Positions 4,401-64,000 of a DNA stretch of 64,000 bases are shown piece by piece. The stretch comes from Amoebophrya sp. A120 (Eukaryota > Protista > Dinoflagellata). Where the stretch lies: positions 3,466,768-3,530,767 of the forward strand of contig CAJINV010000009.1 of NCBI GenBank assembly GCA_905178155.1, given 5' to 3'. The number at the start of each line of letters is the position of its first letter. The first letter of the stretch is position 1. A program made the position numbers and the translations under genes. The notes under the pieces were generated by a model that saw only the letters and a list, made by a program, of their open reading frames with translations, was not told the origin of the DNA and made no database searches.

Positions 4401-7400
4401 CAAAACACGAATAGAAAACGCTTCTCATGGGGATGCGCATTACAAACGTTCTTGTGCTTGCAGATCTGCATGACAACTCTGGGGTGGCGACGTTTTTACA
4501 CAGGATAACTCCCTGCGATTTCGGACGGCCGCGGGCCGCGGTTCGTGCAGCAGTTGAACCGCGTGACGGAAATCGGGTTTCCGAATCTCGTATGAACTGC
4601 AAATACGTCTGGGTCTGGGAGAATGCGAGATTTGTCATGCTAGTCTGGCATGACTCTAAACTCTGTATTGCGTGAGCGCGAAGAGCTCTCCTTGTCTGTC
4701 ATGCAAAAACTAAAACGCAGTTTCTCATGCGGAGCACGCAACTCTGAACCACGGAAAGACTTGTCATGCTGGGCAGGGCATTAAGTTGCGCTCACTCTTC
4801 CCTTTCTTGCATCACAAGTTTCCAGACCCAGACATATTTGCGATTGATAGCACGGTGTGGCGAACGTCTTGCGGAAGGGGAAGATTGCGATCGAACTGTT
4901 GACGTTGGAGTTGGATTTTATCCAAGAAAAAAACGTTGTTAGTGTAAATTTGTGATGCGCAACACGCAAGATGATTGCGTCTGTCATGCTTGGCATGCGT
5001 CATAGGTTCCATCAAAGGGCATTTTCCCGTACTATCTGCGCATGACAGGTTTTTGCTGTCATGCCAGACAAATTTGTAATGCTGTTCCTCCAGAAAAGTT
5101 ACACCTACAATGTTTTTTTCTTGGATAGATTTGAAATGGAGACTACTACCCGGTTTAAACGAGACGCAAAGGCAAGTCGACGCGCGTTCGACGTTGAACC
5201 AGGAGATTATGGAAGTGTCAGAATCGAAATTGACAAAATCGAAATGATTTGCCATGCATAAAATGGATTCCAGCTCGAACCCAGTTTCTAAGTTGCGCAT
5301 CACAAATTCTGGTGGTGCCTAAGTCCACTTTGTAATGCTGTTTAGGCAAAGAAGACAGGAGATTCTCTCATGCTGCTTTAGCAGCTCGAGCTATTACCCC
5401 AAACACGCTTACAATCGGCCTCACTTGCCTGCTCTGCAACACACGTATTTCGCGTCATGCATCTTATGCATCACAAATTTTTCGATTTTGTCAATTTCGA
5501 TCCTGACAGTTCCATAGAAATTGAGATCATGAGGGGGCGGAACGTGAAGTCGGTTTCCTGGCAGATTCCCAACATCCTGAACATTTTAGATTCCCCGGAC
5601 GAGGAAGTGAGGACGGCACCCATTATCTCCCCCTCGTTCACCTTAGCCGGGATCGACCAAGTCCAGTTCATTTTCTACCCGAACGGCTACCAACCGGCGT
5701 ACCAGGACGCGTGTGGGTTGTTTCTCTGCTGTCCGCGCGGGGGGTGCTACTTGAAGGCCGAGGTGTCCATTGGGGGACTGGCGAAAAACACGAGATTGTA
5801 CCAACACGAATACACGAACAAAGAGTTGACTTACGGCAGGGGGTCCTTCTGCAACGTGTACGACGGGATAGACAAAGTGACAAACACAATTGAAATCACG
5901 GCGAAGGTGTTGGACGGGTACCAGTACAAAACGAAGTTAGGGGAGGCGGACAAGAGTATCAAAAGGAAAAATCCCCCCTCCTCCCCATAATCAAAACGAA
6001 GTTTCTGATGCTGGATTTGCGTACACAAATCCGATTTGTCTTGCAGTAAGGCACTGCGGCCAGATGATCCGCAGTCTAGGTGGGAGCGTTTGGGTATAGT
6101 TGTTCAGCATTGCAAACAGCTACCCTCTAGGACCAGCAGCATGCCAAATCGTTTCCGCAATTGGTCGGATGCCTCTGCGCTTGTCTTCTTGCAAGACAAA
6201 CCTGATTTGTGGTCGCAAATCAGCAACGCAAATTTTCGGAAATATACCTGTTCAATATGGGGAGGGGGGATTTTTCCTCTCGATAAAGAGTCTTTTGAAA
6301 GTCTGCCTCCACCCGTCCGTGGACGGAATTCAGGAGATCAAGGCGTTATTTGGTGCGGAAACCGACGATGTGGAAAAAGCTCGGGCACGGCAGGCGTTCC
6401 GGAACACCAGTCTAGCGTCCAAAGGGATCATATCGAATGCAAAAACATCTGGGTCTGGAAGGTTGGAACCTGTGATGCTAACTCTGGACTCTAAAAAAAT
6501 CTGTAGTGCATGACCAGCGATGGGAGTCTAGCTTCTGCTACGCGGAGAGGGCGTTTGCCATGCGGAATAGGCATCAGGAAGCCCTCTAAAAATCTGTGAT
6601 GCTAGGTCGTGCATTACAGACATCCTGGGTCATGCAAAACATGCATGACAAGTGCAAGTCTCAGAACCTTCCAGACCCAGACATTTTTGCATTTGATAGA
6701 TCAACAACGTCGGGTCAAGTCCGCGGTTGGGCCAAGAACGTATGGCGTTCTCAAACGTTACATTCTCAACTGTTACGGATTTGGCACGGATTTGGATGCT
6801 GTTTAGCCCTTCGGAGATTTGTCATGCCAAGCAGCTTGATCATCTACCGGCTCAAGGTAGTTTTGCATGACAAATTCATGTAACAGGTCAGAATGTAACG
6901 TTTGAGAACGCCATAGAACGGGGACCGTCGCCGGACTCTGAAACACGGAAGATGAAAAAGTCGCAGTCCGGTTCCCCGCTCGGCTTCGGCGGTCATTTGT
7001 CCATCGGGAAAACGGCAAAGAACGAGAAATTCCACCTCTCCCCAAACCAGTTGGAAAAAACCTCGAAGATCAACAACCAACTGCCCCCGATTGTCACGCC
7101 CGGTGGGCAGTCGTCGCCTGTGAATCAGAAAAGAGCGAGGATTTTGAACAACAAACTCGAGCAGAGTCCCATTCTCGCGAAGGAGCTGAAGCGCCAGCAG
7201 TTGGAGCAGAAGGAGAAGGAGTTGGAGAGAAGGAAAATGGAGCGGAAACAGGAGCAAACGAATCGGGCGATGCTGAATTGGAAAAAGGTGAAAAAGATCG
7301 TGGAGAAGATGTCCTTATCAAATGCAAATATGTCTGGGTCCGTCTGGGAGATTGCGAGCTTTGTCATGCTAGTCTTGCATGACTCCGAACATTGATTGTA

Positions 7401-10400
7401 TTGCGTGGCCGCAAAGAGCTCCTCTGGGCTGTCATGCAAAAACGCAGCTTCTCATGCGGCGATCGCAACTCAGAAGCTCACCGGAAAACTTGTCATGCTC
7501 GGCAGCGCATTACAGTGATGTGCTCACTATTCGCTTCCTTGCATCACAGGTTTCCAGACCCAGACACATTTGCAATGCATAGTCCTACGTCAGACGGATG
7601 AAAACACGGGAGATGCTGGATCGGGATAGAGAACGGGGGGAATTCCGCTGGATGAACCAATATTGGGAAGAAGTTTTCGGCAACGATGACGAGTGGCAAT
7701 TTGACCCGGTCGCGAATAAGAAGCGGAAACAGCAGCAGATGCTTGCGGAAACCTTGGAAGCCGGATTGTCGTCCCTATTGACCGCGATCGGCGAGGTGAA
7801 GGCGGAACCGGATAAACTGCCGTTATTGTTAAAAATATCAAATGTAAAAATGTCTGGGTCTGGAAGATTGCCAGGTTTGTCATGCACGTTTTGCATGACT
7901 CCTGATGTCTGTGATGCATGCCCTAGCATCACAGATTTTTTGAGGGCCTCGCGATGCCTATTCCGCATGACAAATGCCCTCTCCGCGTAGCAAAAATTGC
8001 ACTCCCTTTGCTGCTCATGCAATACAGATTTTTTTGGAATCCAAACTCAGCATCACAAGTTGCATTCTTCCAGACCCAGACACTTTTACATTTGATAAAA
8101 AACTGTCGGGGACGATTTGAAGGGGGTGATGGGAGAGGTGGCGGAAGTAATGGTGGCGATCGAGAATCCTGAGAATGTAGTCGTGGACGAGGAGGGAGAG
8201 GTTCGGGTGGAAAAGAAGCCGGGAGATTTGAAGAAAAAGAAGAGGAAAAAACAGACACGGGTTGCAGCTGCTGGCAACGAAGATGTCATCAACTGTGAGA
8301 TCTTAGGCGAAGAGGAGGAGGATGAAGAGCAAGACTCTGATGCGGAGGACGACATTGCGGAGGCGCTTTTCGAAATCGAAACAAAGGACTTTGAGGTCGA
8401 ACATAACGAAAAGTTGAGAAGGCGGAGCCGAAGCCCCAAAGCAGGAACAAATGCGAGTAGCAAAGCCAACAGTCGAAAGCAGTCGCCGGGGTCGCCGCAC
8501 AGTGCTTCCAAATCCCCGCATGGGGGCTTCCGCGACAACAATTCATCTACAAGGCCAGCACCAGGGATGAAAAGTAAATCACCGAAAGCTAGTACCTCTG
8601 GGAACAAGAAACCAGTCCCAACCGGCGGCGTCGCCATTCCCGCACAGAAGAAACCGGCAACTACGACATCCCAAACCGACACGTGGCCAAACCCGCTTCC
8701 ACCCAAACCGGAAAATGAAAACAAGCCGAACATCGACGGGCCGGTCCCACCGCCGGTCAACATCTACCCGCCGAACGAACCGCAGGAGGCGACGGTTTTG
8801 TACCACCCGCATGGCTATGCATTGCAAATATGTCTGGGTCTGCAAGATTGCAAGTACGTCTGCATCCTGCAAAAATCTGTGTTGCATGATTACCAAACGT
8901 TGTCCACTTTTGCCTAAGTCCAGAGGCAGTTTCTCATGCAGGAGCGGCATGATAGAGATCTCACAGGGCGGTCTGTCATGCTGGGTCCAGTATGCCAGAC
9001 CTCAGGGGTCATGGATTTTCTGCATGACAAGTCTTGCATTCTTCCCGACCAAGACAGATTTGCAATGCATAATGGCGAAGAGCACTACCGGGACGAGTTG
9101 TATTGGGAATCGAAGTATCACATGTAAAAATGTCTGGGTCTGGAAGGGTACGCCGTTTGTCGTGCACATTTTGCATGATCCGTGATGTCTGTGGTGCATG
9201 CCCTAGCGTCACAGATTTTGTCACGGCTTTCTGATGCTCATACTGCATGAAAAATGCCCACTCCGCGTAGGAAATAGTGGGCCTCTTTTGCGGTTCATGC
9301 AACACAGATTTTACGTGTAATCCGTAGGCAGCATCACAAGTTGCCATCTTCCAGACCCAGACATTTTTGCATTTGATACGAAGGGCGAAGTCTTCCCCAT
9401 CAACCGGTTCGCCGAGTATTCCCGGCCCTACAACGAGAAAGCGCGACAGGCGGATGTGGATTGGAAGGAACGGGTGAGGGAAAAGGAGGAAAAGCTCGGG
9501 CGGAAATCGTTCCAAATGTCGGATAGAGACCGTGACATTGCGGTTACGACGGAAGAAAAGTTTTACGACAAGGATGGGAAGGAGATCATCGAGATGAACA
9601 AGGAAAGCCAGCACGAAGAGATGGCCCGGACGTTCAACACAACGTCTGTCGATTTAGAGGGTAGTTCGGAAAATAATCCTTTGAACCAACTCCCGACGGA
9701 GGTCCAGCAATTAACTTACCCGGAAGACAATTCCCAATTTTTGAACACGACCTATTTTGAATACGATCCGACCATGGGTTTTGTGTACCAATTCGACCCG
9801 AACCGGTCCGACGGGTTTCCGATAGCACGGTTGACGGCGGAGAAATACCGGGAGTTTTACTACGAGGAGATGGAGAAGGGGATGATTAGCTCCGAGAACG
9901 AGAAGTCCTTCCCTCTCCCGCCGGCACATTTGCTAGACACGATTGAGGAGAAAGAGGAGGAAATAAGCGGTGCTCAACTACAGCAGACGGCAGAAGGTGG
10001 TGATGGTACTTCTAGTGGAGGTCAAGATCATGCACCGGAGGCAATTGACGCCCCAGCAGCCGGTGCAGCTGCAGCTGCTGGTGCACCTGCGCTGTACTAC
10101 CCATCCCCGTTTGCGTCGGATTCGGATGGGGAACAGGAGCACGTTGTTGAGCCTTCTGCTTCACTCGGTCAACCAGTCGTCGCAGCCACGATCTCCGGCG
10201 ACGCCAGTCCGCGGATTTGGCGGGACATCCCTGTACCGATTACGTCGATGGAGGAGTTACAAAACGCGACCTTCTCCAACACGTTCACCACGAGCGGGCA
10301 GCGCTCCTCCCGGAACACAAACACCTTCACGCTGACGAATACAAACACCTTCACGTTCTGCTCAAATGCCGATCAAGAGTGTGCTCAGGATGATGACCTT

Positions 10401-13087
10401 GAAGAGAACCCCCAACGCACGACGTTTGATGAGGAGGAAGCCTGCGCCAATTTTCCTTCCCTCCTCCTTTCCCCCACCGACGAAGCAGGGAAGGAAATCA
10501 TTGAGGGCGAGCATAGCGAGGTCCTGAAACTCCCAAATTCTATTCTCCAGAAACCGGCGAAGCGGGTGAGAACGCGGCAAATTTCGACTGGGGAGGTTTT
10601 AATTTACGATGAGTCGCAGTTGAAAAAACTGGTCGAACAGAAATTTCAAGCGAACGACGGTAGGAATTACTGTGGAGAGATGGCGACCAGCATGATTGAG
10701 GTGGACGACTTCTACCCGCGAGACGACAGTCATATACTAGTGTCTGACAAAGCAACCGGGCAAACCAGTTTGAAGAGACAAGACCAGGCGGGTGTCTTGC
10801 GCGGGAAATTGTTCAGTGCGAAAGTGTTGCGGTCCGCCTCACCGAAAGCAGACTCGTTTACGACGATGAATTCCCCCAGGATGTTGAATTACGTGCCTGA
10901 AAAATCCACCGCGTTGTCACAGTCGCCCAAATGTTCTTCACCTGGCAGGACTAAATCCCTCTCCGCCTCCCCGTTGAGCCCGATCAGCTTGATGTCCGAG
11001 AGAATCGTGGAAAAGACGCGGCTACAGGCGATGGAGGAATTGGATATCGAACAGCCGGAGATGGCGTTGAAAAAGGAGCAAAATCTGCTGATGAAACCAA
11101 ACAGATTGATTCACGACGCCAGAATAAATACAAGTTCGAACAAGCTTCATCATCTCCGCGGCACCGCTTCCGCCACTTTTTCCTCCTCCGCAGCGAGCAC
11201 CATGCTGGGAGGTTCGCCTTCTTCCCGCGCCACACGGATTCTCTACGACGATCACTTGAGAAAAACCCTCGACCAGCAATCCGACCCGCGGTTTTACGAC
11301 ACGTTTTTCCCAAAATCCTACAAAAGGTCCGAGCAGGCGGAGAAGTTTGATAGAGCCGTGAAGAAAATCTTGGGGTTGACCGTGAAACAGTTGGTGGAAA
11401 GAGCGGCTGTGAAAAATAACATCCGGGTTGGGAAAGCGGGCCAGATTGAGGAGTTTGATCAGCATTTGCACTGTGAAGTGGAGGAGGACAGGTTTATTCA
11501 GCAACTACCACTAACAAAAGAGAACCGGGGGCTGTTCATGAACGAAAAGCAGAAGCAGATGGAGAAGAAGAATCCGTTTTTTTCCAGTAAATGGAATTTC
11601 GGCAGTGAGGACAAATTAGACGTCAATTTGGTTAAAGAGGAGGAACGAATGCGGGCGAACAGGGAGAAGTATGAAAAAGACGAGGAGGGGACAGTAGATG
11701 CTGGTAAAGAACAAGATCAGGACATCATCGACGCGTTGAAAAAGGCGGTTTTGCTAGGGACAATCGACGACGAGGATACTGTGGGCAAAGAACAAGCTGC
11801 TGACAAAGCGGATCATCCGGACGCCGCAACAGAAGTTTTTCCATCCTCGGGTGCTTTCGTACGATCTGCATCCAAGCCAAAACAACCGGTCCCGCTTCGC
11901 GACGGGACGCTTCGCATGATGCACGGTATCGGCATGCCGGTCCCCGAGGCGATCGGGCACCGCTATCGGGATAGAAACTACAGCCTGCGCAAGCAGAAAA
12001 AATCCGCTGAAGAAGTTCTAGCGGAAGCGGGAACGAAGTTTGACCTTACGACGGCGAAGAGTAAAGTGGAAAGAGATGAAACACACCAGGAGCAAGAATT
12101 ACCTCATCATACTGGTGATCACCCAGGTGACAGCAGCAGTGCGTCGACTTCTGCGAAGAAAAGGGCGTTTTTGAAGAATCCAAAACGGTCGAATTCCTTC
12201 GAGTTCCCGCGGTCCGGGAATGATAGAAAGGAAAAGTTGAAAGACGTGAAGAAATTCGAAAAGGAGTACGATCTAGCCAGGAAGGGGGACTACCCTTTTC
12301 TGCGCGCCCCGGCGAAGGACGAGGAGTTTTTAGCGCATAAGTTGGAACTAGAATTAGACGAGGCCGGAGATCGAGCGGTGACGCCGGAAGCAACGCGGGC
12401 TAGTATGGACAAGAAGGTGGAGCGAGAGATTCTGGAGAAAATCAACGGCAACGGCTCGCACTACAAGAGGTCGCCGTATGGGATAAGTCAGGTGAATTAC
12501 AACAGCTATTTGGGGGAATTACGGAAGAAGGAAATGGAGCAAATGTTTCACCAGGACAAATTGTTCTCGCTGCACCCGAATAAAGGCGCTGGGGGAACTG
12601 GTAGTAAAACAAGTGGTGGGCGTGTAGTCGTGAAGGAGCAAAGCATGACAAAGTCGGCTAGTACAGGGACAATAGCAACACAAAGCTCACCTAGAAGTAG
12701 TACACAGCGCAAGAGGTTAACGGAACAGAGTTTGAAGGAAGATCGGAGTCTTTTTCTCCAGTTCCAATATCAACTGTAAAAATGTCTGGGTCTGGAAGAA
12801 TCCAACTTGTCATGCTGATTTTGGATTCTAAAAAAATCTGTATTGCATGAGCAGCAAAGAAAGTCAAGCTTTGCTACACGGAAAGGGCATTTGTCATGCG
12901 GTATAGGCATCAGGAAGCCCTCACAAAATCAGTGATGCTAGGGCATGCATCACAGACATCAGGAGTCATGCAAAATGTGCATGACAAACCTGACAATCTT
13001 CCAAACCCAGACATTTTTACATTTGATATCCAAGCCGACGATATGATGTTGAAGGACCGGGGGGACAGTGGGAAGGCGAAATATTAG
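1497..13087 (+). CDS. Large (~2286 aa) protein with coiled-coil N-terminus, MATH/TRAF-like domain (~5522-5956) and long low-complexity C-terminus; 18 introner introns plus 1 GT-AG intron (2076-2219)
   Basis: Removing each TAT..ATA element plus one 5-bp DR gives one continuous frame from ATG 1497 to TAG 13087 (6861 nt, divisible by 3). SVSWQIPN..SPSFTLAG..FIFYPNG..CGLFL resembles a MATH domain. Confidence 0.75.
1564..1819. mobile_element. Introner family A (TIR TATCAAATGCAAAAATGTCTGGGTCTGGAA type)
   Basis: TAT..ATA; DR gattg; removal gives QREI/ELFADE. Confidence 0.9.
1885..2033. mobile_element. Introner family B (TIR ..TGCAAAAGTATCGTACT)
   Basis: DR gggca; frame restored. Confidence 0.9.
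2443..2705. mobile_element. Introner family C (TIR TATGGCGTTCTCAAA type)
   Basis: DR acatc; frame restored. Confidence 0.85.
2805..3083. mobile_element. Introner family D (TIR ..GTAAAAACGTACCCACCCCAGAG)
   Basis: DR ttcca; frame restored. Confidence 0.9.
3134..3292. mobile_element. Introner family B
   Basis: DR gcaca; frame restored. Confidence 0.9.
3913..4165. mobile_element. Introner family A
   Basis: DR tccga; frame restored. Confidence 0.9.
4228..4507. mobile_element. Introner family D
   Basis: DR gctgc/actcc (both differences synonymous); frame restored. Confidence 0.85.
4591..4849. mobile_element. Introner family A
   Basis: DR diverged, tctcg/gcacg; frame restored. Confidence 0.85.
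4919..5127. mobile_element. Introner family E (TIR TATCCAAGAAAAAAAC)
   Basis: DR gattt; frame restored. Confidence 0.88.
5208..5516. mobile_element. Introner family F (TIR TATGGAAGTGTCAGAATCGAAATTGACAAAATCG)
   Basis: DR gagat/gaaat; frame restored. Confidence 0.88.
5957..6285. mobile_element. Introner family G (TIR TATCAAAAGGAAAAATCCCCCCTCC)
   Basis: DR aagag; frame restored. Confidence 0.9.
6431..6698. mobile_element. Introner family A
   Basis: DR gatca; frame restored. Confidence 0.9.
6741..6915. mobile_element. Introner family C
   Basis: Long perfect TIR; DR gaacg; frame restored. Confidence 0.9.
7316..7581. mobile_element. Introner family A
   Basis: DR gtcct; frame restored. Confidence 0.9.
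7836..8097. mobile_element. Introner family A (opposite orientation to 6431)
   Basis: DR aaaaa, so no GT or AG is obtainable by sliding the junction; frame restored. Confidence 0.9.
8816..9071. mobile_element. Introner family A
   Basis: DR atggc; frame restored. Confidence 0.9.
9116..9378. mobile_element. Introner family A
   Basis: DR cgaag; joins to the 1107-aa ORF. Confidence 0.9.
12768..13028. mobile_element. Introner family A
   Basis: DR tccaa; last intron of gene 1. Confidence 0.9.
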
Positions 13088-33881: not shown

Positions 33882-35341
33882 ATGTACACGACCGCACTCA
33901 ATCTCCAAGCAGCAAGAAGCTCAAGTTCATCTTTCGACCCTTCCCCAGCGGTTCTTCTTCCGACGAGCGAACTTCTGAACATTTCCTCCACTAAAAACAA
34001 CGACTACTTCTGCGAATTCTGTCTGTTCCACCTGGTGATCTTGTCGATTCTCGCCCGTGTGTACCTCACGAAGGAGTTCTCGACGAAGGGACTTTCGTTT
34101 TTGACCAGGATGCTCTTGTAAAGTAAGACTCGATAGTACACTCTAATACGACCCCCTCCTCGACAGTGTGTACAACAACTCATTTGATTTCTCATCCGCA
34201 CTTGCAAGCAGCTTCACTGAAGACGCGGGTTTTCTGGCATTGGCATTGCTGGTCGACCAGGGGCAGCGCAACAAATCTACTTCGTCCAGCAACAGCTGCA
34301 AGAAGATGCAGCGCAAAGTGTACACCTCCGCGAAAACCACCAGTGCTGCGCACAGCACGAATTCCCCGAAAAGAACCGTGCCAACGGCCGGAGGGAAAAA
34401 GGTGGAGCAGAATTTGGCCGCGGAAGCAGAGGCAAAGGTACTACTGTAACTGTTGTTTGTGTTGCAGATTATGCAAGAAAATGAAAAGGAATAAGTCAAT
34501 AAACTGTACTAGTCTGTCCTCGTTGAAAATATGTCGATTATTGCAAGAACCGCAATGCAAAGCCAAAGTTCACTTCTCTCAAAAAATATCAAAACAGAAA
34601 CTCGCCCTTCTGAAGCAAGAGCATGAGAAGTTGTTGGGAAATATCACAGGAAAAAGTGTAAACGTATAACGGAATTTGTGATGCAGCAATGCATCACTAA
34701 ACGTGCTAAAATTTGTCATGCATAACATGCATACTGGACTACATTTGTGATGCATGAGTGCAATCTGTGAAAACCGTTCACGTCAACACTTTTGCTTGTG
34801 ATAGGAAAACGAGAACAGCTGGCGTACCAGATCGAAAGCGCACAACAGAGGAGCAAGGAGATGCAGTATTGGATTGTTTTTCGTACATGATGTATTGTGT
34901 GTGTGGTTTGTGCATGACAAAATACCCTTACAACGCACCTTCCGCATGACAAAGTGCCACCACGTCGAAAATATTTAAAAACAGCGAAGAAAAGGCCTTT
35001 CTCGAGGGGGAGCTGAACCGGGTGCAGCAGCAGGGGGAGCAGCAAGAGAAGCAAGTGGAGGAGGAGTTATCCTGTGCAAAAGTATCGTACTCGTAGGAAT
35101 TGCAGTCATGCATTACAAATCTCGTTCTTAAGGCAAATCAGCATGACAAATTCCATTTGTCATGCTGAGCGAATTTGTATTGCATTTACTATTAGTACGA
35201 TGCTTTTGCAATTCATAGGAATTAAAGACTTGCAAAGCGGAACTCGAGACCTCGATCCATAAACTGCACTACTCGGCGACCGAAAACGAGGTGCAACTCG
35301 GGAACTACGTGGGCTCGGTGTTTGAGAAAACGAAGTCGTAG
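33882..35341 (+). CDS. Coiled-coil hypothetical protein; several short introns plus introners at 34642 and 35068; 5' structure uncertain
   Basis: KLALLKQEHEKLLGK/REQLAYQIESAQQRSKEM and EKQVEEE/LKTCKAELETSIHKL are rebuilt across the elements; stop TAG 35341. Confidence 0.5.
34642..34803. mobile_element. Introner family J (TIR TATCACAGGAAAAAGTGT)
   Basis: DR ggaaa; frame restored. Confidence 0.82.
35068..35217. mobile_element. Introner family B
   Basis: DR ggagt/ggaat; frame restored. Confidence 0.88.
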
Positions 35342-46494: not shown

Positions 46495-46688
46495 TATCCC
46501 GTGCAAAAGTATCCTAGTACTCCCACAAGAAATTATTGCAATCGGGTCGTATGATAGATCCTAATCCTATTTCTCGGCCAAGCTGCATGACGAGTAAGTT
46601 TGATGATTTTTCCTGTGGTAAGAATTGGCATGCGAAGATTCTTGTCCATGCGAGATGACAGTGGGATAGGATATTTTTGCAATGCATA
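46495..46688. mobile_element. Degenerate B-like element, probably in a 5' UTR
   Basis: tatcccgtgcaaaagtatcct..aggatatttttgcaatgcata; DR decayed (ttctg/gtcgg). Confidence 0.65.
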
Positions 46689-51518: not shown

Positions 51519-52956
51519 ATGACTAGACTTACGGCCGGGCGGCGGGCGATCGCAACTAGATTCCCTCCGTCTTTCGCGATATGTTGCAGAAGTACTCTAC
51601 TTACCACGTACCGCACCGAGAGAGAATTCACGCATGTGGTGGCACGCGGCCGGGACGTTGCGAAAACACGTAGTCTGACCACGACCTGTGGGACAGCAGG
51701 CGATTCATGTGGATATCATCATCTGCGCAACACGGCGGTGGAGCATCAGGGCGAGCACTTACTCGAGAAGAACGCCGGGAGTACTAGTGGCGCAAAAATG
51801 CTGCTGCTGTCACTGGAGCGCATGATGCGCATTAGCCGGAAATTAGGCGGAGGACGTGGATGTGGATATACCAGTCTCACTCGGTTGCCACCAAATCTCT
51901 CATGGCTCACCACGATCGCTTGCACCAGTGCCATGGGCCCTCGTGCGACGATGGGAGGATATTTAAGAGGTCTTCACGTGATATCATCAACCAACAATGC
52001 CGCAAGACCAGTACAACGACTGCGGGAACAACATCAATCTCGCCGCCACATCAACACGCAGCGGCGCAGGAAAATCGCGATCCGGAAATACCACTACCGG
52101 TTCCACTTCAAAAATGCGCAGTTTCGGCTGATATCAAAGAAAAAAAGTTCGTCGCGATCACTCATGCGCATTTTTGCAATGCAAAACTGTTTGTCATGCG
52201 TAAAAATGCATCACAGCCAAACTTCATTAGGGATTTCCCTAGTGTTTCCGCAATACAAGGAAAGTTTGTGACGCTGAGAAAATTTGTAATGCAAAGCCTG
52301 CAAGTTAGTGACTGTGACAAGCTTTTTTCTCTCCATAGCTGAAAATTCCGATTTACTACGGGCCGATAGCACTGCGACCGACCAACGCAAATGATAAAAG
52401 AAGAAGTGCACAGAGGAACTATTATCGGACGCCCAAATTGAAGGTCTTCAAACGACAGAGGTAGATAAAGTGTGATGGCAGTTCTACTCTTTGTGCGAGG
52501 CAGCAGCTCCGCACGGCGAGAACTTGCATTTGATGTTGTACATCAACAGCTCACAATATTGCGATTCTTGCACTGTTCAGAAGGAGAGCCTAGAAAAGCG
52601 TGACAACGAACAAACGTGGCAGCGCCGACTGCAGAAACAGATGAAAATCGCAAAAATGATGAAACAGCGTATTGTAAAATTTTCGATCAGAAGATCCAAG
52701 AAAGAGGCAAATGAAATAAAGCCATGCCCTTCCGATCTTGTTGAGAGAGCAGAAAAATCAATTACTGAAAAACAGAAGATTTCGGCCGACGGGCGACGGC
52801 ATTGATACAGATCCGCTGGAGATGAAGTTGAAAATGTATGTGACCATGCCTTCCACCTGGGCAGACGTGCGGGTGTCGCTACAGCCACTGTATGAGTCAA
52901 CTTTTGTGTGGTCCTTTTCCCAACAATTTTCAGGCAGGACCCCCATTATTTTCTAG
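51519..52956 (+). CDS. Basic hypothetical protein with Arg/Thr-rich, possibly mitochondrial-targeting N-terminus; 3' end uncertain
   Basis: Frame continues across introner 52132 (NAQFRL/KIPIYYGP) and GT-AG intron 52461-52549. Confidence 0.4.
52132..52337. mobile_element. Introner, E-like
   Basis: tatcaaagaaaaaaag..cttttttctctccata; DR gctga; frame restored. Confidence 0.82.
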
Positions 52957-53274: not shown

Positions 53275-56200
53275 ATGGTTGCGCCCGATACTGGTACACA
53301 GCACCAACAGCAGCACAAAATGGCACAGCAGCAGCAGCAGCAACATACGAACAATATCCCGCCGCAGGGTTCCATGCTCGCCATGCACCAACAGCTAAAA
53401 GTCCAGACCTTCGGGGATCCGAACGACCCGTATGTGATTATCCAGGAGCTCGGTGGCGGCATGCAGGCCCGGGTGTACAAGTGCAGGAAACAGAACCCGA
53501 ACCCCGACGGAACGCCAAACACGCAGGAATTTTTCGCCGTGAAGGTGGTGGAGCACAAGAGGACGCTGAACGACACGGAACGGGAGACGCAGGTCGCGCA
53601 CCTGCTGAAGGAGGCGGAGATCTTGAAAAACTTACACCATCCGAAGATCGTGAACTTAAAGCAAGTTCTTAGGGATGACGAACACGTGTACTTGGTGATG
53701 GAATACGTGTCAAACGGCGATCTGTTCGACAAAATCGCGGAACGAAAAGGGTTGTCGGAGCCAGAGGCGAAATACGTTTTTCAACAGATTTTGGAGGCGC
53801 TGGGGTACATGCACGGGCAGAATGTGGTATAATAGAAAATTTTTTGTTGGTTTTTGTCATTTATTTATAGCGTTTGATACAATTGCACACTTAAGTATGG
53901 CAGAACCAAAACAGCAACAGTATGCTGGTACACATTAGTGCAGCTGAAGATTCGCGATGATTTTTGTGATGTGGAGTCTCGCATGATTTTTGAAATAATT
54001 CCTGTTTGTCATGCGAAAATCAAAGAATAACAAGAAGCGCAAATGTATTTGGATCTACATCTCCTATCGCAACAAGAACCCCTACATCAATCACAGATCC
54101 ACCGCGATTTGAAGCCGGAAAACATTTTGGTTGGCAAGGAGGTGTCCGTGAAGGAGAACGACCAATCTTTCACCTATTTCGACGTCAAAGTCGCAGACTT
54201 CGGCTTGTCCAAAATTGTTTCCGAAGACTCCGTGGCGAAAACCCACGTGGGGACGCCCTACTACTGGGCCCCGGAGCTGCTCCGGGCATCCCAGAGCCAG
54301 CACAGGAAAAGGAACGAGGATAACCCGCAGGGCGGCGGTCAGACGAATAACGCGAGCCCGCGGACTGGTGCCGGGAATAAAACGAATAACTCCCCGAGGA
54401 CCAAGCAGGAAATAGAGAAGGAGCATATGCACTGCAAAAGTATCGTACTAGTACAAATCGCAATACAAACTGGCTCAGCATTACAAATTAAATTTGTAAT
54501 GCGGATTTACCTAACCAACTAGATTTGTAATGCATAACTGCGATTACTACGAGTGCGATGCTTTTGCACAGGATAGAGCAAAAGCAGAAGCAAAAAATCC
54601 AGAACGCGATCAACGGGAACAACTATCAAATGTAAAAGTGTCTGGGTCTGGAAATTTGTGATGCTAAAATGTGCAAGAGGAGGCCACTTGCTTATGCAGG
54701 AAAGCATGACAAGGTTGCAGCACGCTTTCTCATACGAACTCCGCATGAGAAACTGCGTTTTTGTATGACAGAAGAGGCTACCACTGTTCTTGGTCATGCA
54801 ATACAGATTTCACAGGAATGCAAGACCAGCATTACAAGTTCCAACTTTCCAGACCCAGACATTTTTACATTTGATAACAATTCGGGGAATACCAATGGCG
54901 CGGGAAATGAGGACACAAAAACGGACTTTGCGATCATCAGCACGGCGTCGGAGGACCAGGATAAAGACGAGGACGAAAACAACTCAAAATGGGAGGACGA
55001 AAATAAGTACGACTCCCGCGTGGATTTGTGGTCTTTATCCCGTGTAAAAACGTCCCCACCCCAGAGTCAAGATCGGGATTTTGCAACACAAACCTAGACC
55101 TTTTGGGAGTCACGCATGACAAGTTGCAGGCTGTACTGTAGTGCAGCTTAGCGAGGGAAGCCGCATAACAAATCCGTCTCCTGATCCTGCTCACAGTATT
55201 ACAAGTTCCAAAACACGATGAAAAATGCCTCTTATGGGGATGCGCATTACAAATGCTCTTGTGCTTGCAAATCTGCATGACAACTCTGGGGTGGGGATGT
55301 TTTTACATAGGATAGTCTTTGGGCGTGGTTTTGTACGTGATGCTGATGTATCAAATGTAAAAGTGTCTGGGTCTGGAAGATTGCCAGGTTTGTCATGCAC
55401 ATTTTGCATGACTCCTGATAGTACCTGTGATGCATGCCCTAGCACCATCGCAGATTTTGCGAGGGCTTCCTGATGCCGATACCGCATGACAAACGCTCTT
55501 TCCGTGTAGCGAAACTCGGACTCTCTTTGCTGCTCGTGCAATACAGATTTTTTTAAGATCCAATATCAGGATGACAAATTGGATTCTTCCAGACCCAGAC
55601 ACTTTTACAGTTGATATGATGGGGCACTACCCGTTCAACAAGAAGCGCGCGATGCCGTTGCTATTAAAAGGAAAAGTCCCCCCTCCCTATATCGAAAAGG
55701 TATCTTTCCGAAAATTTGTGTTGCTGATTTGAGGTCACAAATCACATTTCTCTTGCAAGAAGACAAGGGCAGAAGCTTCCGGCCCATTATGGAAGCGATT
55801 TGTCATGCTGTTGGGCCTAAAGGTCAGCCGTTTGCACTGCTGAGCAACTAGACCCATACGCCCCTACCTGAATGAGGATCGATCTGGCCGCAATGCCTTC
55901 CTGCAATACAAATCTGATTTGTGTACGCAAATCCAGCATCACAGATTTCCTTTTTGATATGGGGAGGGGGGGTTTTTCCTTTTCATAGTTGCACGACCAG
56001 ATTCTGGCGGGGTTGTCGTTGACGAAGCTGCAATATGAACTGCAAAAGTATCGTACTAGTATAAATCGCAATACAAATTGGCTCAGCATTACAAATTGAA
56101 TTTCTCATGCGGATTTCCCTTAACACGCAGATTTGTAATGCATAATTGCAATTACTACGAGTACGATACTTTTGCACTGGATATGCAATCGGATAAAAAG

Positions 56201-59200
56201 ACGAAACACCTGAGCGGTGAGGTGCAGCACCTGATCGCATCTTTACTAATATGCATTGCAAATATGTCTAGATCTGGAAGGTTGAAACTTGTCATGCTAA
56301 ATCCGAATCAAGCAACAATCTGTGTTGCATGACTGCCAAAAGCTGTCCACTTTCGACCAAGTTGGAGGGGAGTTTCTCATGCAGGATGGGCATGACAGAG
56401 ACCTCGCAGACTCTGTCATGCTAGATCCCGCATTCCAGACCTCATGGCTAATGGAAAACCTGCATTACAAGTTTAGACTCTTCCAGACCTCCCAGACACC
56501 TTTGCAGTTGATAACTAACCGCCGACGCGGATAAAAGGATGACCTTGGAGGAAATCTTCCGGCACCCGTGGTGCCACATGGGCTCGGAGTATTTGGCGAA
56601 GCGAAAACATCCGGTGACCACACACATCCCGCACAGAATACCGATCAGATTCGAGAAAATCCCGGAGGAGCGGTCAATTACGCTAGGCGCAACCGACGAG
56701 GTCTTTGCGGACGCGAATGAAGGCGACGGTGTAGGTGGAGTAGCTCCGGGAGGTTCTTCTTCGACGAAAGAACAGAAATCTACTGCGACGAGTCCGAAAG
56801 GGACGACAAATGACGCCGGAAATAATGTTGGAAAGGAAAAGAAGTTCGACCCGCCGGAACGAGGGCAAGAACCGATCATACAACCGACTACGGCACCAGC
56901 TGCAACTCTGGAATCTGCCGCGGTCAAAGAGACCAGTACTGTAGTAGTCCAAGGTAGTTCGAAAGACGAAATTGAGCTCGTTGATAAGTCGGTGAAGTCC
57001 GACAGCTACGATGAAGTTATTTCCGCGCCGTTCCAGAAACGGTCAGACCAACCTCTGGACACTAACTCGCCAAGAAGCTGCAATCGACAAGGCAACGCGA
57101 CGCATCACAGTTCATCTGTGTCTCCGTCGAAAGGAGCTGCTGTGAGAGGCGGACATCAGTTCATCCGCCCGGGGGCCGGAAATGTCGTTGCGCCGACGGA
57201 GATTCAGATCAACGAGGCCACTTCGACAGCGGTCTTAGCCGCCGCCGGTGGGGAGAAGCGACTGTCGCCCACGATGAATTCGCGTGGGGGAAACAACAAC
57301 TCGCCCAACAAACTACACAACACCATGCAGCCAGTGACGGTGCATACCACAACCTACCCCATGTCTGCTGGTACTATCACTGGAGCGGCGGTTGTGGCTG
57401 GAGGGCCGCACGACTCGCAGTTATCAAATGCAAAAATGTCTGGCTCTGGGTCTGGAAGAGTCATGCTGTTTTTGCATGACACAGAAGGTCTGGCATGGAA
57501 GATCTAGCATTACAGGTTTCGAGAAGCTTCCGCGATGCCGAATTTGCATGACAAATCCTCCATTTTCATGGGAGAAAGTGGGCAGCTTTTGCTACCTATG
57601 CATGAGAGATTTTTCTGTCTTCTGAAATGCGCATCACAAGTTTGTATGTCGGTGCGGTTGTTTTAGCAATGTCGGTGCGGTTGTTTTAGCATCACAAGTT
57701 TGTATTCTTCCAGACCCAGACATATTTGCAATCCATAGCAGTACGCAAACGACTATTACTTCCAAGAACTACTCCATTTACAGGCGACGATTGCGAAGTG
57801 TCTCGAGTCGGCCTATTTGGCGTACAGGGGGGCGAACCTGTCCGATGAATCTTCCATCGTGACAACGACAACAAATTCGACCTCCAATGTGCCCACCATC
57901 AACACGGTGGTGTCCACCGACACTTCGGACGTTTTACTCTCCAAGCACCTCCAGACGCAAAACACGGGCACCACGGGGGCAACAGCAACTACATCTGCAG
58001 TTTCCGCGACGGAGTCTCTTCTCGTCCAGCCGGCTTCTTCCGCCCAGCATCATCAAGTCGCAACTACGGGACCCGCCACAACGTCTATGAACCAGACCCA
58101 AGCTAATATGGTGACAACCTCTATCCTGTGCAAAAGTATCGTACTCGTACTAATTGCTATCATGCATGACAAACATCCATTTTTAGGTGAATCAGCATTA
58201 CAAACAAGGTCCGAGCACGGGGACAGAGTCCCCGTGCGGCGACCTTCCGGCATTTGTCTGCGCGGTGGCACTGGGCAGGCAGGTCGCTCGCAGCTAGGTA
58301 ATTCGTTGCGCTTTGCATTCAATGACCCGCGACGGGGGGGCCTCCTGCGGACGCGGCTCCCCTGCTTGCGCGCACTAGATTCATTAGCCTGCCGCGCGCA
58401 AAGATAAAAAGAAAAGAAGAAACTGACGCCGGGTCTGCAGCCGGCCCCCAGGTTATGGCGCTGCGACAGAGTCCCCACATTGCCCTAGGGCTTTTCTCTG
58501 CCCCCTCCTTGGCCGCGCGGTGTGGTTAACGGGGAGCGCTAACAGCTGGCCCCTAGGCCATGACGCGGGGACCGAGTCCCCGCGCTGGCCTAGGGCTTTC
58601 GCCCCTCGGCCGCACGGTGTCCGGGAAGCGCCCACAGCTGGCCCCTAGGCCATGACGCGGGGACCGAGTCCCCGCGCTGGCCTAGGGCTTTCACGCCTCG
58701 GCCGCACGGTGTCCGGGAAGCGCTCACTGCTGGCCCCTAGGCCATGACGCGGGGACCGAGTCCCCGCGCTGGCCTAGGGCTTTCGCCCCTTGGCCGCACG
58801 GTGTCCGCGAGCGAAGCGCTCACAGCTGGCCCCTAGGCCATGACGCGGGGACCGAGTCCCCGCGCTGGCCCAGGGCCTTCGCCCCTTGGCCGCACGGTGT
58901 CCGGGAAGCGCCTGCAGCTGGCCCCTAGGCCATGACGCGGGGACCGAGTCCCCGCGCTGGCCTAGGGCCTTCGCCCCCTGGCCGCACGGTGTCCGGGAAG
59001 CGCGCAAAGCTGGCCCCTAGGCCATGACGCGGGGACCGAGTCCCCGCGCTGGCCTAGGGCCCTCGCCCCTTGGCCACACGTTGACCGGGGAGCGCGCACA
59101 GCTGGCCCCTAGGCCATGACGCGGGGACCGAGTCCCCGCGCTGGCCGAGGGCTTTCGCCCCTTGGCCACACGTTGACCGGGGAGCGCGCACAGCTGGCCC

Positions 59201-62200
59201 CTAGGCCATGACGCGGGGACCGAGTCCCCGCGCTGGCCTAGGGCTTTCGCCCCTTGGCCACACGTTGACCGGGGAGCGCGCACAGCTGGCCCCTAGGCCA
59301 TGACGCGGGGACCGAGTCCCCGCGCTGGCCTAGGGCTTTCGCCCCTTGGCCACACGTTGACCGGGGAGCGCGCACAGCTGGCCCCTAGGCCATGACGCGG
59401 GGACCGAGTCCCCGCGCTGGCCTAGGGCTTTCGCCCCTTGGCCGCACGTTGGCCGGGGAGCGCTCACAGCTGGCCCCTAGGCCATGACGCGGGGACCGAG
59501 TCCCCGCGCTGGCCCAGGGCTTTCGCCCCTTGACCGCACGGCGTCCGGGACGGAAATGGTCACAGTTGGCACCTAGGTCATGGCGCGGGGACATAGTCCC
59601 CGCGCTCACCTAGGGCTTTCGATCGCCCCTCGGCCGCACCGTCTCGCGTGACAGCTTGGGCTTTGGGTCCAAACCCCACATAGCAAAGTCCGAAAGTTTG
59701 GCTGGGGTGTGTCCGAGAGTCTGCCCGGGGTGTGTCCAAAAGTCTGCCCTGGGTGTGTCCGGGGTGTGTCTGGGGTATGTTCGGACTTTTTGCCTGGGGT
59801 ATGTTCGGGGGTCTGTCTGGGGTATGTCTGGGGTGTGTCTGGGGTGTGTCTGGGGTATGTTTATACCCCACCTGTTGGCTTTTCGGCAAAAAATTGTAGT
59901 CCGCCCGTGATTGAGGAGCATTTGCATACCCCTGACACACCCCCGAACATACCCCCGAACATACCCCTCGCATGCATTTTTGACCAGCTGCTGCAGTTTA
60001 GATAGTAATTGCATTTTATTTCCTTTTGAAAAAATTTGTGATGCAATTTATACTAGTACGATATTTTTGCAATGCATAACCTCGGAAAGACAGCAAATTC
60101 TGACGAAGCTGCGGAATTTGTCGCAAAAGTGCTTCCAGGTGACGGCCCACCAGGCTTATGACTGCGTGGCGCAGTTTGGTGCGACGGCGAGGCGTATCAA
60201 ATGCAAATATGTTGGGGTCTGGAAGGTCGCAACTTGTCATGCTGTGTTTGTATTCTAGGGAAATTTGTATTACATGACCAGAACTACAAAGAGGGGTCCA
60301 GTTTGTGTTGCAACGCGGACAGGGCATTTCTCATGCAAAAGGCGCATCATTCAGGAAAGGTCCTAAGATAAATCTGTGATGCTAGAGCATACATCACAGA
60401 CAACCATGGGTCATGAGAAATATGCATGACAAGTCTTGCATTCATCTTCCAGACCCTGACACATTTGCAGTTCATAAGGCGGGTACGGGAAGACGTGTTG
60501 CCCGACATGCAGCTCGCGATCGAAGAGGACGCGCCGGAGCTCGCGCAGGGCTTTCTGGAGACGATAAACCAGTGGGTGTCGGAGATGAAGGACATGAACA
60601 CGAACATCGAGGACAGCTACAAGATGATCAGCGAAGAAATCCGAATTTTAATCGACTCGACTTCCGTTTTAAAAAAAGCGGTGGACGAGGAGATTTCGCA
60701 AGCGAACTTGAATTTGAAGCAAATTGCGGCGAGTTCCGGCGCTGTGGTACCAGCGAGTATCACGACGCTGAAGGCTGGAGCGGTTGTAGCAACGAGTGGT
60801 GGCGCGAGCGGGTCTAGTACTGCTTTGGCGCGGACCAGTTCGATCCCGGGTGCGACGACGACGACTTTAACGGCCGCGACCACGCCGACGGTGAATAATG
60901 CCACTTCAAGTAGCGCCATGTCTACTTCAAACAAGAATCATGGAAGTAGATCATCGTCGAACAACTGCTCGCCTGCCGACCACATTCCGGATTTGCAGGA
61001 CGCGAGGGCCGTGGTGCCGGTGACAAGGATATGAACTGCAAATATGTTTGGGTCTGGAATAAACTTGTGATGCTAGTTTCTGAATGGTGGGCGCACTGCG
61101 TTACGCAGCCACGCATGATAAGTTTCTGAGCTTCTATGTCTTTCGCTTCCCGCATGACAAACTGCGTTTTTGCATGACAGGTAAGCGGCTGGTTTCCTGC
61201 TCATGCATTACAGATTCAAGAGCCATGTGAGACAAGCATGACAAACCTGCATTCTTCCATACCCAGACATATTTGCACTTGATAGAGGACGCTCTCGCCC
61301 ACGACCACCGCGCTGATCGCGAACGGGGCAGCAGCAGCGGCGATCGACATATCAAATGCAAATATGTCTGGGTCTGGAAAGGTGGAACTTGTAATGCGTG
61401 TCTTGCTTACCTGAAAAATCTGTGTTGCATGAGCAGAAAACGGGCTGCTTCCCTTTTCATGCAAAAAGAAATAACACAGCTTGTAATGCTTGTTACGCAT
61501 CAGAAGGCGCTTCGGAAGCTTGTCATGCCTCGCTGCCATTGCAAGCGTTGCAATCATGCGCAATTCAGCATCACAGATTTCCAGACCCAAACATATTTGC
61601 ATTTGATACGACACCGAGGTTTACAAGAACTTGTACCAGAAAATCCTGCGCGTAGTGAATATGGACCAGAACATATGAGCGTGCACAACTCCCCGTCCCC
61701 CTCATTTGTCATGCATTTTACCCAAGCCACCCCTTACCTCTTGGCACTGTGTGCATGGCAAGTTCTGGTAGCCCAAATAGCACTATACTCCAATAAAAAT
61801 TTGTCATGCAGAACCGGCATTCTTGCTGATGCTTGTGTTGCTGTTCATGCAACACAAATGAAGATGGGGAGGGGGAGTTGTGAACTGTTATAGAACAGCT
61901 ACGGTGTCGTAAATAACAGCGGTGTCGTCGGCCCGAATTCGGTTACAGGTGTATCAAATGCAAAAATGTCTGGGTCTGGAAGAATGCGCGATTTGTCATG
62001 CTGCTTTTCCATGACCCATGGGGTCTGGAATGCAGGACCTAGCATGACAGATTCTATGCGATGATCTCTCTCAAGCCTATCCTGCATGAGAAAGTCCCTC
62101 CCGACTTGTTCAAAACTGGACGACTTTTGGTAATCATGCAACACAGATTTTTGCATGCTTCAGATTTAGCATGACAAGTTGCAATCTTTTCAGACCCAGA

Positions 62201-64000
62201 CATTTTTACATTTTATAAGGTGCTCAGATGAACCACCAGCAACTGATCGAGCAGTACGAGCAGGTAGACGCGCAGGTGATTGACTTGCTATTTTTCACGC
62301 CCAACAACATCATTTCTTCCTCCCAGTTCTCGAGCAGTGGCGGGGGGAACAGCAATGCTGGGAGCAGCAGCTCCGAGGAAGACAGTGTGGCTCATCACCA
62401 CGGGACGACCACAGCCACGAGGTGCCTGTTTCATCATCACCAGGGCAGTACGAGTAGCGGGCCGCTTCGGTATCAAATGCAAAAGTGTCTGGGTCTGGAA
62501 GGCTGCAAGTTTGTCATGCACATTTTGAATGACTCTTGACGTCTGTGATGCATGCTCTAGCATCACAGATTTTGTGAGGGCTTCCTGATGCCTATACCGC
62601 ATGATAAATGCCCTCTCGTCGTGGCAAAAACTGGACCTCTTTTGCTGTTCATGCAATACAGATTTTTCTAGTGTCCAAATGCAGCATCACAAGTTACATC
62701 CTTCCAGACATCCAGGGATATTTGCAATCCATATTCGGGGAACCATGACGATTGAAGAAGTGAAATCCAATACGGGGATCGCGAGCTCCTTCGGAACCAG
62801 CACTGGGGTATCAAATGTAAAAATGTCTGGGTCTGGAAGAGTCCGAACTTGTGATGCTACCTTTGGACTCTACATAAAATCTGTATTGCACGAACAGCAA
62901 AAGAGGTATAATTTGTGCTACGCGGAGAGGGCATTTCTCATGCGGTATGAGCATCAGATTCAGAAAGCCCTCGCAAAATCTCTGATGCTAGGGCATGCAT
63001 CACAGACCTCCTGGGGCATGCAAAATATGCATGACAAACTCCTGCACTCTTCCAGACCCAGACACTTTTGCAATCCATAACGGGGTGGGATGAATAACAA
63101 TGGAGTTGGAACAAGTGCCTCCTCCACGCACGACAGCTCGGCAACCACTTCTGGGAACGAAGATCTTCACGAGAACAAAGAAGTGGACCACGATCAGCAT
63201 GAGCCGTCGCCAACGAGCAACACAAAAATTGCGGTCTACATGGGAGGCAATAGTACTACACAGAATATTACTACTGGCACCACCACTGTAACTACAGGAG
63301 CCACTGCGTCCTCCTCCCGAGGAGGGGTCGGCTCCTGTGCTGTCAACCCGAGTAGTACCAGCAAGCATTTGTTTCAAACCACGCACCAACAGCGTATCCG
63401 GCACCAATCCGCCATTGCCCTGATGCGGGCGGTTTCTGCGCTGCGCAAAGTGGACGAAATTCTGCAGAAGTCGACCATGTTTTGGTCTCATTTAGGCCTG
63501 ACCACGGGACAAGTGTCTCAAATGAAAGACACGCTCACGCTGTGGATCAAGTACGCCAGCAGCATATGAAATGCAAATATGGCTGGGTCTGGAAACTTGT
63601 GATGCTGGTTGGCGAATCAAGAGAACGCCAGAAATGACGGCTCAGCATGACAGGTTTTTGAGTCGCTTGGTGTTGCCTATTCTGCATGAGAAACTGGGTT
63701 TTCGCATGACACAAAAGTCGTGGCGCTTTTGGCTACCTGGCATGACAGAATTGACAGTCATGCTAGCAGAGCATGACAAACCCGGCATTTTTCCAGACCC
63801 AGACATATTTGCAATGCATACAGCAACGAAAAGCTCCGGAAACGACTGCACGAGCGGCTGGAACAGTATCGCATGTTCTGGCTCGATATCCTGTGCAAAG
63901 GTATCGTACTCGTATAGATGCAAGTCTTGCATTACAAATCTTGTTCCCAAGGCAAATCCGCATTACAAATTTTAGTTCTCATGCGGAGGAAATTTGTAAT
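53275..64000 (+). CDS. Ser/Thr protein kinase (CAMK-group-like) with long C-terminal extension; 1 GT-AG intron (53827-54096) plus at least 18 introners; 3'-partial
   Basis: [50 protein letters not shown]; [19 protein letters not shown] and [20 protein letters not shown] appear only after element removal. Confidence 0.93.
54426..54575. mobile_element. Introner family B
   Basis: DR gagca. Confidence 0.9.
54624..54876. mobile_element. Introner family A
   Basis: DR acaac/acaat. Confidence 0.9.
55036..55314. mobile_element. Introner family D
   Basis: DR gtctt; splits kinase DLWSLG motif. Confidence 0.93.
55349..55616. mobile_element. Introner family A
   Basis: DR tgatg; splits MLM/GHYPF. Confidence 0.93.
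55662..55987. mobile_element. Introner family G
   Basis: DR gttgc. Confidence 0.9.
56034..56183. mobile_element. Introner family B
   Basis: DR tgcaa. Confidence 0.9.
56250..56513. mobile_element. Introner family A
   Basis: DR actaa; splits kinase subdomain XI. Confidence 0.92.
57422..57737. mobile_element. Introner family A with internal ~23-bp tandem duplication
   Basis: DR gcagt; atgtcggtgcggttgttttagca occurs twice. Confidence 0.88.
58436..59645. repeat. GC-rich minisatellite, ~92-bp unit, about 13 copies, each with a strong hairpin
   Basis: CCTAGGCCATGACGCGGGGACCGAGTCCCCGCGCTGGCCTAGG recurs at 58552, 58644, 58736, 58832, 58924, 59016, 59108, 59200, 59292, 59384, 59476; degenerate edge copies. 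Confidence 0.95.
59702..59967. repeat. 11-bp GGGGTRTGTYY tandem repeats followed by three inverted copies
   Basis: ggggtgtgtct/ggggtatgttc array at 59702-59860; gacacacccccgaacatacccccgaacatacccc at 59934-59967. Confidence 0.85.
60195..60476. mobile_element. Introner family A
   Basis: DR aggcg. Confidence 0.9.
61030..61284. mobile_element. Introner family A
   Basis: DR aagga/gagga. Confidence 0.88.
61350..61608. mobile_element. Introner family A
   Basis: DR cgaca. Confidence 0.9.
61674..61892. mobile_element. Introner family H
   Basis: DR gaaca. Confidence 0.88.
61952..62217. mobile_element. Introner family A, close relative of the 25260 copy
   Basis: DR aggtg; internal sequence very similar to 25260-25527. 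Confidence 0.9.
62471..62733. mobile_element. Introner family A
   Basis: DR ttcgg. Confidence 0.9.
62809..63079. mobile_element. Introner family A
   Basis: DR tgggg/acggg; frame restored. Confidence 0.87.
63565..63820. mobile_element. Introner family A
   Basis: DR cagca. Confidence 0.9.
63887..64000. mobile_element. Introner family B, truncated by the window end
   Basis: Left end tatcctgtgcaaaggtatcgtactc. Confidence 0.8.

Follow-up and report, generated by a model that had tools for sequence, protein, structure and literature searches.

We report that a protein kinase gene of the dinoflagellate Amoebophrya sp. A120 is interrupted by five short inverted-repeat elements that are absent from its RNA, within the region coding for kinase subdomains IX-XI. 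At four further elements of the same stretch, the cut falls inside the flanking direct repeat and not at the element ends, as observed for three of them in RNA and for one in a deposited protein. The gene lies in a stretch of 64,000 nucleotides (assembly GCA_905178155.1, contig CAJINV010000009.1, positions 3,466,768 to 3,530,767), hereafter the window, whose first letter is position 1. The five inserts are almost certainly A120 introners, i.e. miniature inverted-repeat elements of a known type that are absent from the transcript assembly; the system is already published, and the locus is a vivid example of it and not new in kind. We favor, as the probable explanation, that they are introners read by way of a hairpin and spliced out of the pre-mRNA by means other than GT-AG signals.

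A scan using terminal inverted repeats alone recovered all five focal elements, with 15-19 of the first 20 nucleotides complementary between the ends, and grouping by interior similarity placed them, in order, in families D, A, G, B and A, the two A copies lying in opposite orientation. This confirms the original prediction that five elements of four families split subdomains IX-XI. Each focal element starts with TAT and ends with ATA, with the inverted ends inside and a direct repeat outside; the motif TAT-N7-AAA is present at all ten ends, and a perfect 5-bp direct repeat flanks all five, including the last (56250-56513), which has the weakest inverted ends and whose right junction is spanned by a contig of the DNA-type sequencing run X1. 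Every one of them has relatives inside the window, with best matches of 84-88%, and the very high summed depth over the elements in X1 fits families that are repeated genome-wide. GT-AG, GC-AG, GA-AG or AT-AC ends are attainable at no register of any of the five, and the GT (GC)...AG ends of canonical U2 spliceosomal introns are lacking in all. Taking out each element with one repeat copy leaves micro-exons of 29, 40, 41 and 61 nt, as had been predicted (29-61 bp), and an open peptide frame, in which a stop appears if any single element is retained. When 13 removal lengths were modeled, the frame stayed open at 0, -3, +3 and +6, and the subdomain IX-XI motifs were intact at 0 only.

The same organization recurs along the window in 53 elements, which make up 23% of its bases. 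A perfect 5-mer repeat flanks 41 of the 53, whereas 10,000 shuffled pairings yielded 0.78 on average and 6 at most. This count is somewhat inflated, since the set was scored partly on repeat identity (one satellite false call was dropped and a 1957-nt element was added by hand), a bias of which the focal five are free. TAT-N7-AAA stands at 45/53 left ends and 45/53 right ends, a GT-AG register is possible in only 3/53 elements, and the repeats are perfect at 5 bp in 40 of 52 elements and at 6 bp in none.

Removal from RNA was assessed from assembled contigs, which alone cover the locus and which drop rare forms; the four RNA-type runs (X3-X6) are two samples of one study that are designated 'RNA' only by automated guess. 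The X3 contig lacks the canonical intron at 53827-54096 and hence represents spliced RNA. This contig (number 10) has 171 letters between 55030 and 56514, precisely the predicted sum of the micro-exons, and agrees with the spliced model at all displayed piece boundaries; the length of the spliced model up to 63886 is 4286, which is also the contig coordinate at that point. Farther downstream (59990-64000), element plus 5 nt is skipped at all eight complete elements in all four runs, and the end at 60078 is joined to the upstream exon in 4/4 runs, with the preceding 1957-nt introner skipped. The claim of base-precise removal is supported by these observations, and the join that was to be sought in cDNA is matched at its full 171 nt, the focal evidence being end points and length. 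Family A is skipped in both orientations (60195 and 62809 versus 61952 and 62471), which implies that the signals must be symmetric. Contigs of X1, for their part, cross the exon-element junctions with no differences at a depth of 22-27, approximately that of the exons, and the elements are thus present in the DNA. No exon skipping was found among the 15 of 1152 joints that were displayed, all from X1; as rare forms are dropped, this is no evidence of its absence.

Where the two repeat copies are identical, six cut positions yield the same mRNA. Imperfect repeats resolve the cut because the letters of their left and right copies differ, and we define the register k as the count of left-copy letters kept. 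Naming elements by their first position, at 54624 the RNA keeps the fifth letter of the right copy (k at most 4), at 61030 the first left letter is kept (k at least 1), and at 62809 the first two left letters are kept (k at least 2); at 4591 only a k of at least 3 fits the deposited protein, which is a gene model and not reads. Registers 0 and 5, which would place the cut right at an end of the element, are contradicted at 61030, 62809 and 54624. Register 1, which had been predicted beforehand on account of its AG acceptor (ATA+G), was refuted as a general rule by the joint 62805->63082. If one register holds throughout, the RNA confines it to 2-4 and the inclusion of the deposited protein to 3-4, with k = 4 the most likely of the two. 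All nine 'predominant' A120 site rows in Table S4 of PMC7789003 (a source cited here and below from portions of its text, tables and legends) have N-T donors, which fits register 4. At 62809, element plus 5 is removed although element plus 6 offers a longer repeat (5 nt versus 3), which favors a ruler over repeat matching. A literature search that did not extend to all papers and figures brought up no study in which imperfect repeats are used to map the A120 cut, which is no proof of novelty.

The proposal that the gene so interrupted is under selection is also supported. Its first exon (53275-53826) has one match at E <= 1e-10 among 309 candidates, the protein P0001 of Amoebophrya sp. A25 (77% identity), and the gene extends from 53275 beyond the end of the window, with the A25 protein mapping through to 63887; the protein search with this exon yielded no A120 entry for this kinase. 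No gap interrupts the alignment with the A25 orthologue at any of the five focal junctions, and 45 of the 57 micro-exon residues are identical. Of the 13 loci from a metagenome scan we used L001, which belongs to a close relative; the remaining 12 show matches of 27-39%. Over 321 codons, which lie upstream of the first micro-exon and extend a little way into it, L001 gives a synonymous divergence (dS) of 0.31, a nonsynonymous divergence (dN) of 0.012 and a dN/dS of 0.039; as L001 ends 20 nt into that micro-exon, the other three lie outside the estimate. L001 lacks the elements at 52132, 54426, 54624 and 55036 and has a single target copy where inspected; conversely, it has a family-D element of its own (L001 6269-6559, in kinase exon 1) with the repeat AGTTC, at which the window shows a single AGTTC (53664-53668). 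These empty and filled sites identify the direct repeat as a target-site duplication in a once-continuous exon, and indicate an independent spread of the same families in sister lineages. The elements are accordingly short, non-coding, bounded by inverted ends and a target duplication of fixed length, and variably present between relatives, as are miniature inverted-repeat transposable elements (MITEs).

The original prediction further held that each element must pair its own ends despite nearby ends of the same family. When 54990-56560 is folded in silico as a whole, 19.8-28.9 pairs are expected between the ends of the same element and at most 0.2 across elements. The global fold hence speaks for this part of the claim, but the energies of isolated duplexes do not always favor the cognate partner.

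We posit the following sequence of events. An element, presumably mobilized by a DNA transposase acting in trans, would insert into an exon until then uninterrupted and duplicate 5 bp of target, as the comparison of empty and filled sites with L001 attests for the insertion. In the transcript its own ends are predicted to pair into a stem of 20-29 bp, the nearest cognate partner winning, in either orientation. Exactly the element plus 5 nt would then be removed, as the eight joints downstream show and as the length indicates for the five focal elements. The cut would lie inside the repeat: at k = 4 the left border of the intron would precede the stem by a single base, making N-TAT a GT-like donor of relaxed form, and its right border would follow the stem by four bases. 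Catalysis would be by the U2/U5/U6 spliceosome, with the stem replacing U1. In the portions of PMC7789003 cited here, U1 is not detected in the genus, 83/89 spliceosomal proteins are reported, and U2, U4, U5 and U6 are present in A120. We consider a fixed ruler, with the cut at a set distance from the hairpin, rather likely, and a spliceosome, probably a divergent one, the better candidate for the catalyst. More tentatively, and with somewhat less than even expectation, most introns might be spliced by geometry alone, one base upstream and four downstream of the stem base, whatever the letters or orientation, in which case the catalyst might not be a spliceosome.

Several points weigh against the explanation that we favor. 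No lariat, branch point or catalyst has been observed. The four inner focal joints are supported by end points and total length, not base by base. The register is drawn from four elements, one of them represented by a deposited gene model of uncertain independence from X3-X6; as the four bounds come from different elements, an element-specific register is compatible with them, and at 61030, taken by itself, register 1 with its AG acceptor would fit. A terminal A-N, as expected of register 1, is likewise present in seven of the nine Table S4 rows (PMC7789003), and joint positions in that table depend on the aligner, their placement being arbitrary. The choice of +5 over +6 at 62809 is confounded, for the +6 product is frameshifted and could be degraded. 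In isolation, the left end of 56250 pairs better with the right end of 57737 (-36.9) than with its own (-28.1); since isolated ends can prefer a neighbor, pairing fidelity likely rests on local folding. Finally, a purine or G bias in the repeat is weak as a splice signal and not significant over the ten positions tested; the purine bias at position 5 (39/53, p 0.025 uncorrected) is not convincing.

The main rival, which we regard as unlikely, retains the same elements and stem and ascribes their removal to a spliceosome-independent endonuclease-ligase, as has been suggested for the nonconventional introns of euglenids. It would account for the lack of conserved terminal dinucleotides at any register, and a strand-specific branch point is hard to reconcile with removal in both orientations; the hairpin introns of euglenids leave as full-length circles, not lariats, according to the sections of PMC11282704 cited here. 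It is opposed by the near-complete spliceosome reported in PMC7789003, by the canonical introns in the same transcript, by the U tract that the inverted AAA places close to each 3' end, and by the GT-like donor of register 4; nor was any such enzyme identified in this analysis. Less probable again is that the stem joins the ends and the cut slides within the repeat according to local dinucleotides or repeat matching, with no fixed ruler. The Fig. 3 legend of PMC7789003, which describes splice sites that vary in position with respect to the hairpin, agrees with such sliding, as does the derivation of the register bounds from different elements, and 9 of the 15 coding repeat mismatches are synonymous. 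However, the four bounds all overlap at 3-4, the longer repeat at 62809 goes unused, and no mixed letters are listed at imperfect repeats in X3-X6, although minor forms are hidden in contigs. The share of synonymous mismatches shows no excess over what is expected if one copy is free (0.42; p 0.12; three elements lacking a trusted frame were left out and one frame was set by hand), and coding constraint on both repeat copies is likewise unsupported.

Programmed elimination of DNA in a transcribing life stage, comparable to that of the internal eliminated sequences (IESs) of ciliates, appears very improbable. IES excision is brought to mind by transposon ends starting with TA and by the seamless loss of one repeat copy. 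Yet the X1 contigs cross the junctions unbroken at exon-like depth, and our inspection of them for element-free DNA found filled junctions only, with the limit that this is one DNA-type run in contig form. The RNA-type runs include element ends joined to the flanks of other genes, as unspliced RNA or DNA would be, and the published work, in the portions cited, treats the elements as introns supported by RNA-seq (PMC7789003). A dead kinase gene riddled with transposons, or an assembly artefact, might be suspected from the stop produced by any one retained element. It is refuted by the spliced contigs in four runs, the gapless orthologue, the low dN/dS and the identical junction contigs of X1.

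As introners, the elements of the window can be placed among known systems. A120 is reported to have approximately 29,850 introners with TAT-N7-AAA ends and 3-5-nt repeats, for which a hairpin model was advanced (Farhat et al. 2021, PMC7789003). The elements here resemble these in organism, ends, families, length near the 240-nt mean, non-canonical borders, absence from RNA, compatibility with the hairpin model and location in co-oriented genes, as well as in a repeat in the 3-5-nt range (5 bp in the Fig. S19 legend). They differ in inverted repeats of about 25-30 nt versus the reported 8-20, in a repeat that is uniformly 5 bp in the window, and in a border position bounded to register 3-4 if fixed, none of which is a difference in kind. 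No transposase is reported in A120 in section 16 of that paper; an introner family bearing an open reading frame, family 38, is reported in PMC12130899. The terminal inverted repeat families that Gozashti et al. 2025 (PMC12130899) list for A120 include sizes of 149, 252-261, 278-279 and 319-349 bp, which are those of B, A, D and G here; this comparison covers 21 of the 58 A120 rows of their Supplement 8 and equates families by size only. The splice sites of those families are mostly or partly non-canonical, with mixed calls (gt, at, ag, ac, NC) and repeat lengths of 2-5, and three end motifs of the window elements were not found in 14 supplement text files of that paper. Nonconventional introns of euglenids and MITE-derived introns of Fritillaria borealis (PMC11282704, in part) share inverted ends, repeats resembling target duplications, non-canonical borders and an origin from MITEs. 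The euglenid introns differ from the window elements in having CAG/CTG ends and a pyrimidine-purine border, and those of Fritillaria in having AG-AC and AG-AT, whereas nothing is fixed here but the T of N-TAT at register 4. TA..TA termini are common to our elements and IS3EU/GingerRoot (PMC10045372, in part), but membership was rejected on duplication length, which is usually 6 bp in that group and 5 here (0/52 at 6).

Table 1. Positions in the window of the features of the kinase gene and of one introner in another gene
Feature	Positions	Strand	Remarks
Focal element 1	55036-55314 (279 nt)	.	Family D, repeat GTCTT; relative L001 empty there
Focal element 2	55349-55616 (268 nt)	.	Family A, repeat TGATG
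Focal element 3	55662-55987 (326 nt)	.	Family G, repeat GTTGC
Focal element 4	56034-56183 (150 nt)	.	Family B, repeat TGCAA
Focal element 5	56250-56513 (264 nt)	.	Family A, orientation opposite to element 2, repeat ACTAA
Kinase coding exon 1, ATG at 53275, N-lobe	53275-53826	+	Pfam Pkinase E 1.7e-26; A25 P0001 77%
Canonical GT-AG intron, begins GTAT	53827-54096	+	Absent in X3 contig; present in X1 contig and L001
Family B introner, repeat GAGCA	54426-54575	.	L001 site empty
Introner, imperfect repeat ACAAC/ACAAT	54624-54876	.	RNA keeps right-copy position 5, register <=4; empty in L001
Exon ending in kinase subdomain IX (DLWS)	54877-55030	+	X3 contig piece 54876-55030, 0 other letters
Micro-exon, 29 nt counted with right repeat copy	55315-55343	+	In L001 first 20 nt directly after upstream exon
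Micro-exon, 40 nt	55617-55656	+	Spliced model and A25 alignment
Micro-exon, 41 nt	55988-56028	+	Spliced model and A25 alignment
Micro-exon, 61 nt	56184-56244	+	Spliced model and A25 alignment
Exon with subdomain XI and start of low-complexity tail	56514-57416	+	X3 contig, spliced model, A25 alignment
Introner of 1957 nt, family-B ends, repeat ACCTC	58122-60078	.	92-bp x 11.8 tandem array inside; absent in RNA
Introner, imperfect repeat AAGGA/GAGGA	61030-61284	.	RNA joint 61025->61286 in X3-X6, register >=1
Introner, imperfect repeat TGGGG/ACGGG	62809-63079	.	RNA joint 62805->63082 in X3-X6, register >=2
Introner in another gene, imperfect repeat TCTCG/GCACG	4591-4849	.	Deposited A120 protein fits register >=3 only

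Beyond the focal region, the 1957-nt introner encloses a GC-rich 92-bp x 11.8 array and short satellites within an intact 5-bp repeat; its absence from RNA shows that an interior 13-fold longer does not prevent removal. The elements contain, in 12.8 kb, 169 copies of a 9-nt motif, GCAT[GTC]ACA[AG] (in 50 of 52 elements), versus two in 11 kb of coding sequence; it is common to several families, is often mirror-placed 31-45 nt inside each end, and is present in one copy in each of the two canonical introns examined (2165 and 54006). The motif might serve as a transposase site or a splicing signal, or be a remnant of decayed introners. A gap between coding stretches at 34860-34990 has two copies of it and no intact inverted ends, and is possibly a decayed introner. 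Other elements lie within a further open reading frame upstream of the kinase (52132-52337, where L001 is empty) and apparently in an untranslated leader (46495-46688, with no open frame around it). An Rfam search of the window gave no match, and GC-rich stretches lie at 27-28 kb and 30-33 kb. Long element-spanning open frames on the + strand are consistent with the co-oriented gene blocks described for Amoebophrya in the cited parts of PMC7789003.

The gene at 1498-13084 holds 18 introners and one canonical intron (2076-2219), with no Pfam match listed, and corresponds to the A120 protein CAD7960568.1 (2286 aa). Residues 380-900 of the translation of window positions 9381-12761, from a long exon of this gene, are 100% identical to that protein, which identifies the window as A120, and over 2228 aa the protein equals the element-free model with 16 elements removed, these being the introners, out of the 18, that fall in the part matched residue by residue. 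The public A120 annotation therefore already treats the elements as introns. The exon at 5517-5954 looks MATH-like; a Pfam search with it gave no match, and no orthologue was found among proteins of 257-2000 aa. In two further runs with the same species label as X1, X11 and X12, 19 and 4 reads aligned, all on element ends and none on exons; over these 23 reads the element ends are 90-99% alike and no exon sequence is found at 90%, which suggests a different lineage with related introners.

Imperfect target duplications thus constitute a natural marker of the cut position in introners. That position, and a mechanism operating without GT-AG or a detected U1, is the question left by PMC7789003 in the portions cited here, and the four imperfect repeats of this window bound it. 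If the ruler of one base before and four after the stem is true, the two distances add up to the 5-bp duplication, and any element of this class would become a seamless intron on landing. Such a ruler would account for the invasion of the genome by introners and for how U1 could be dispensed with.

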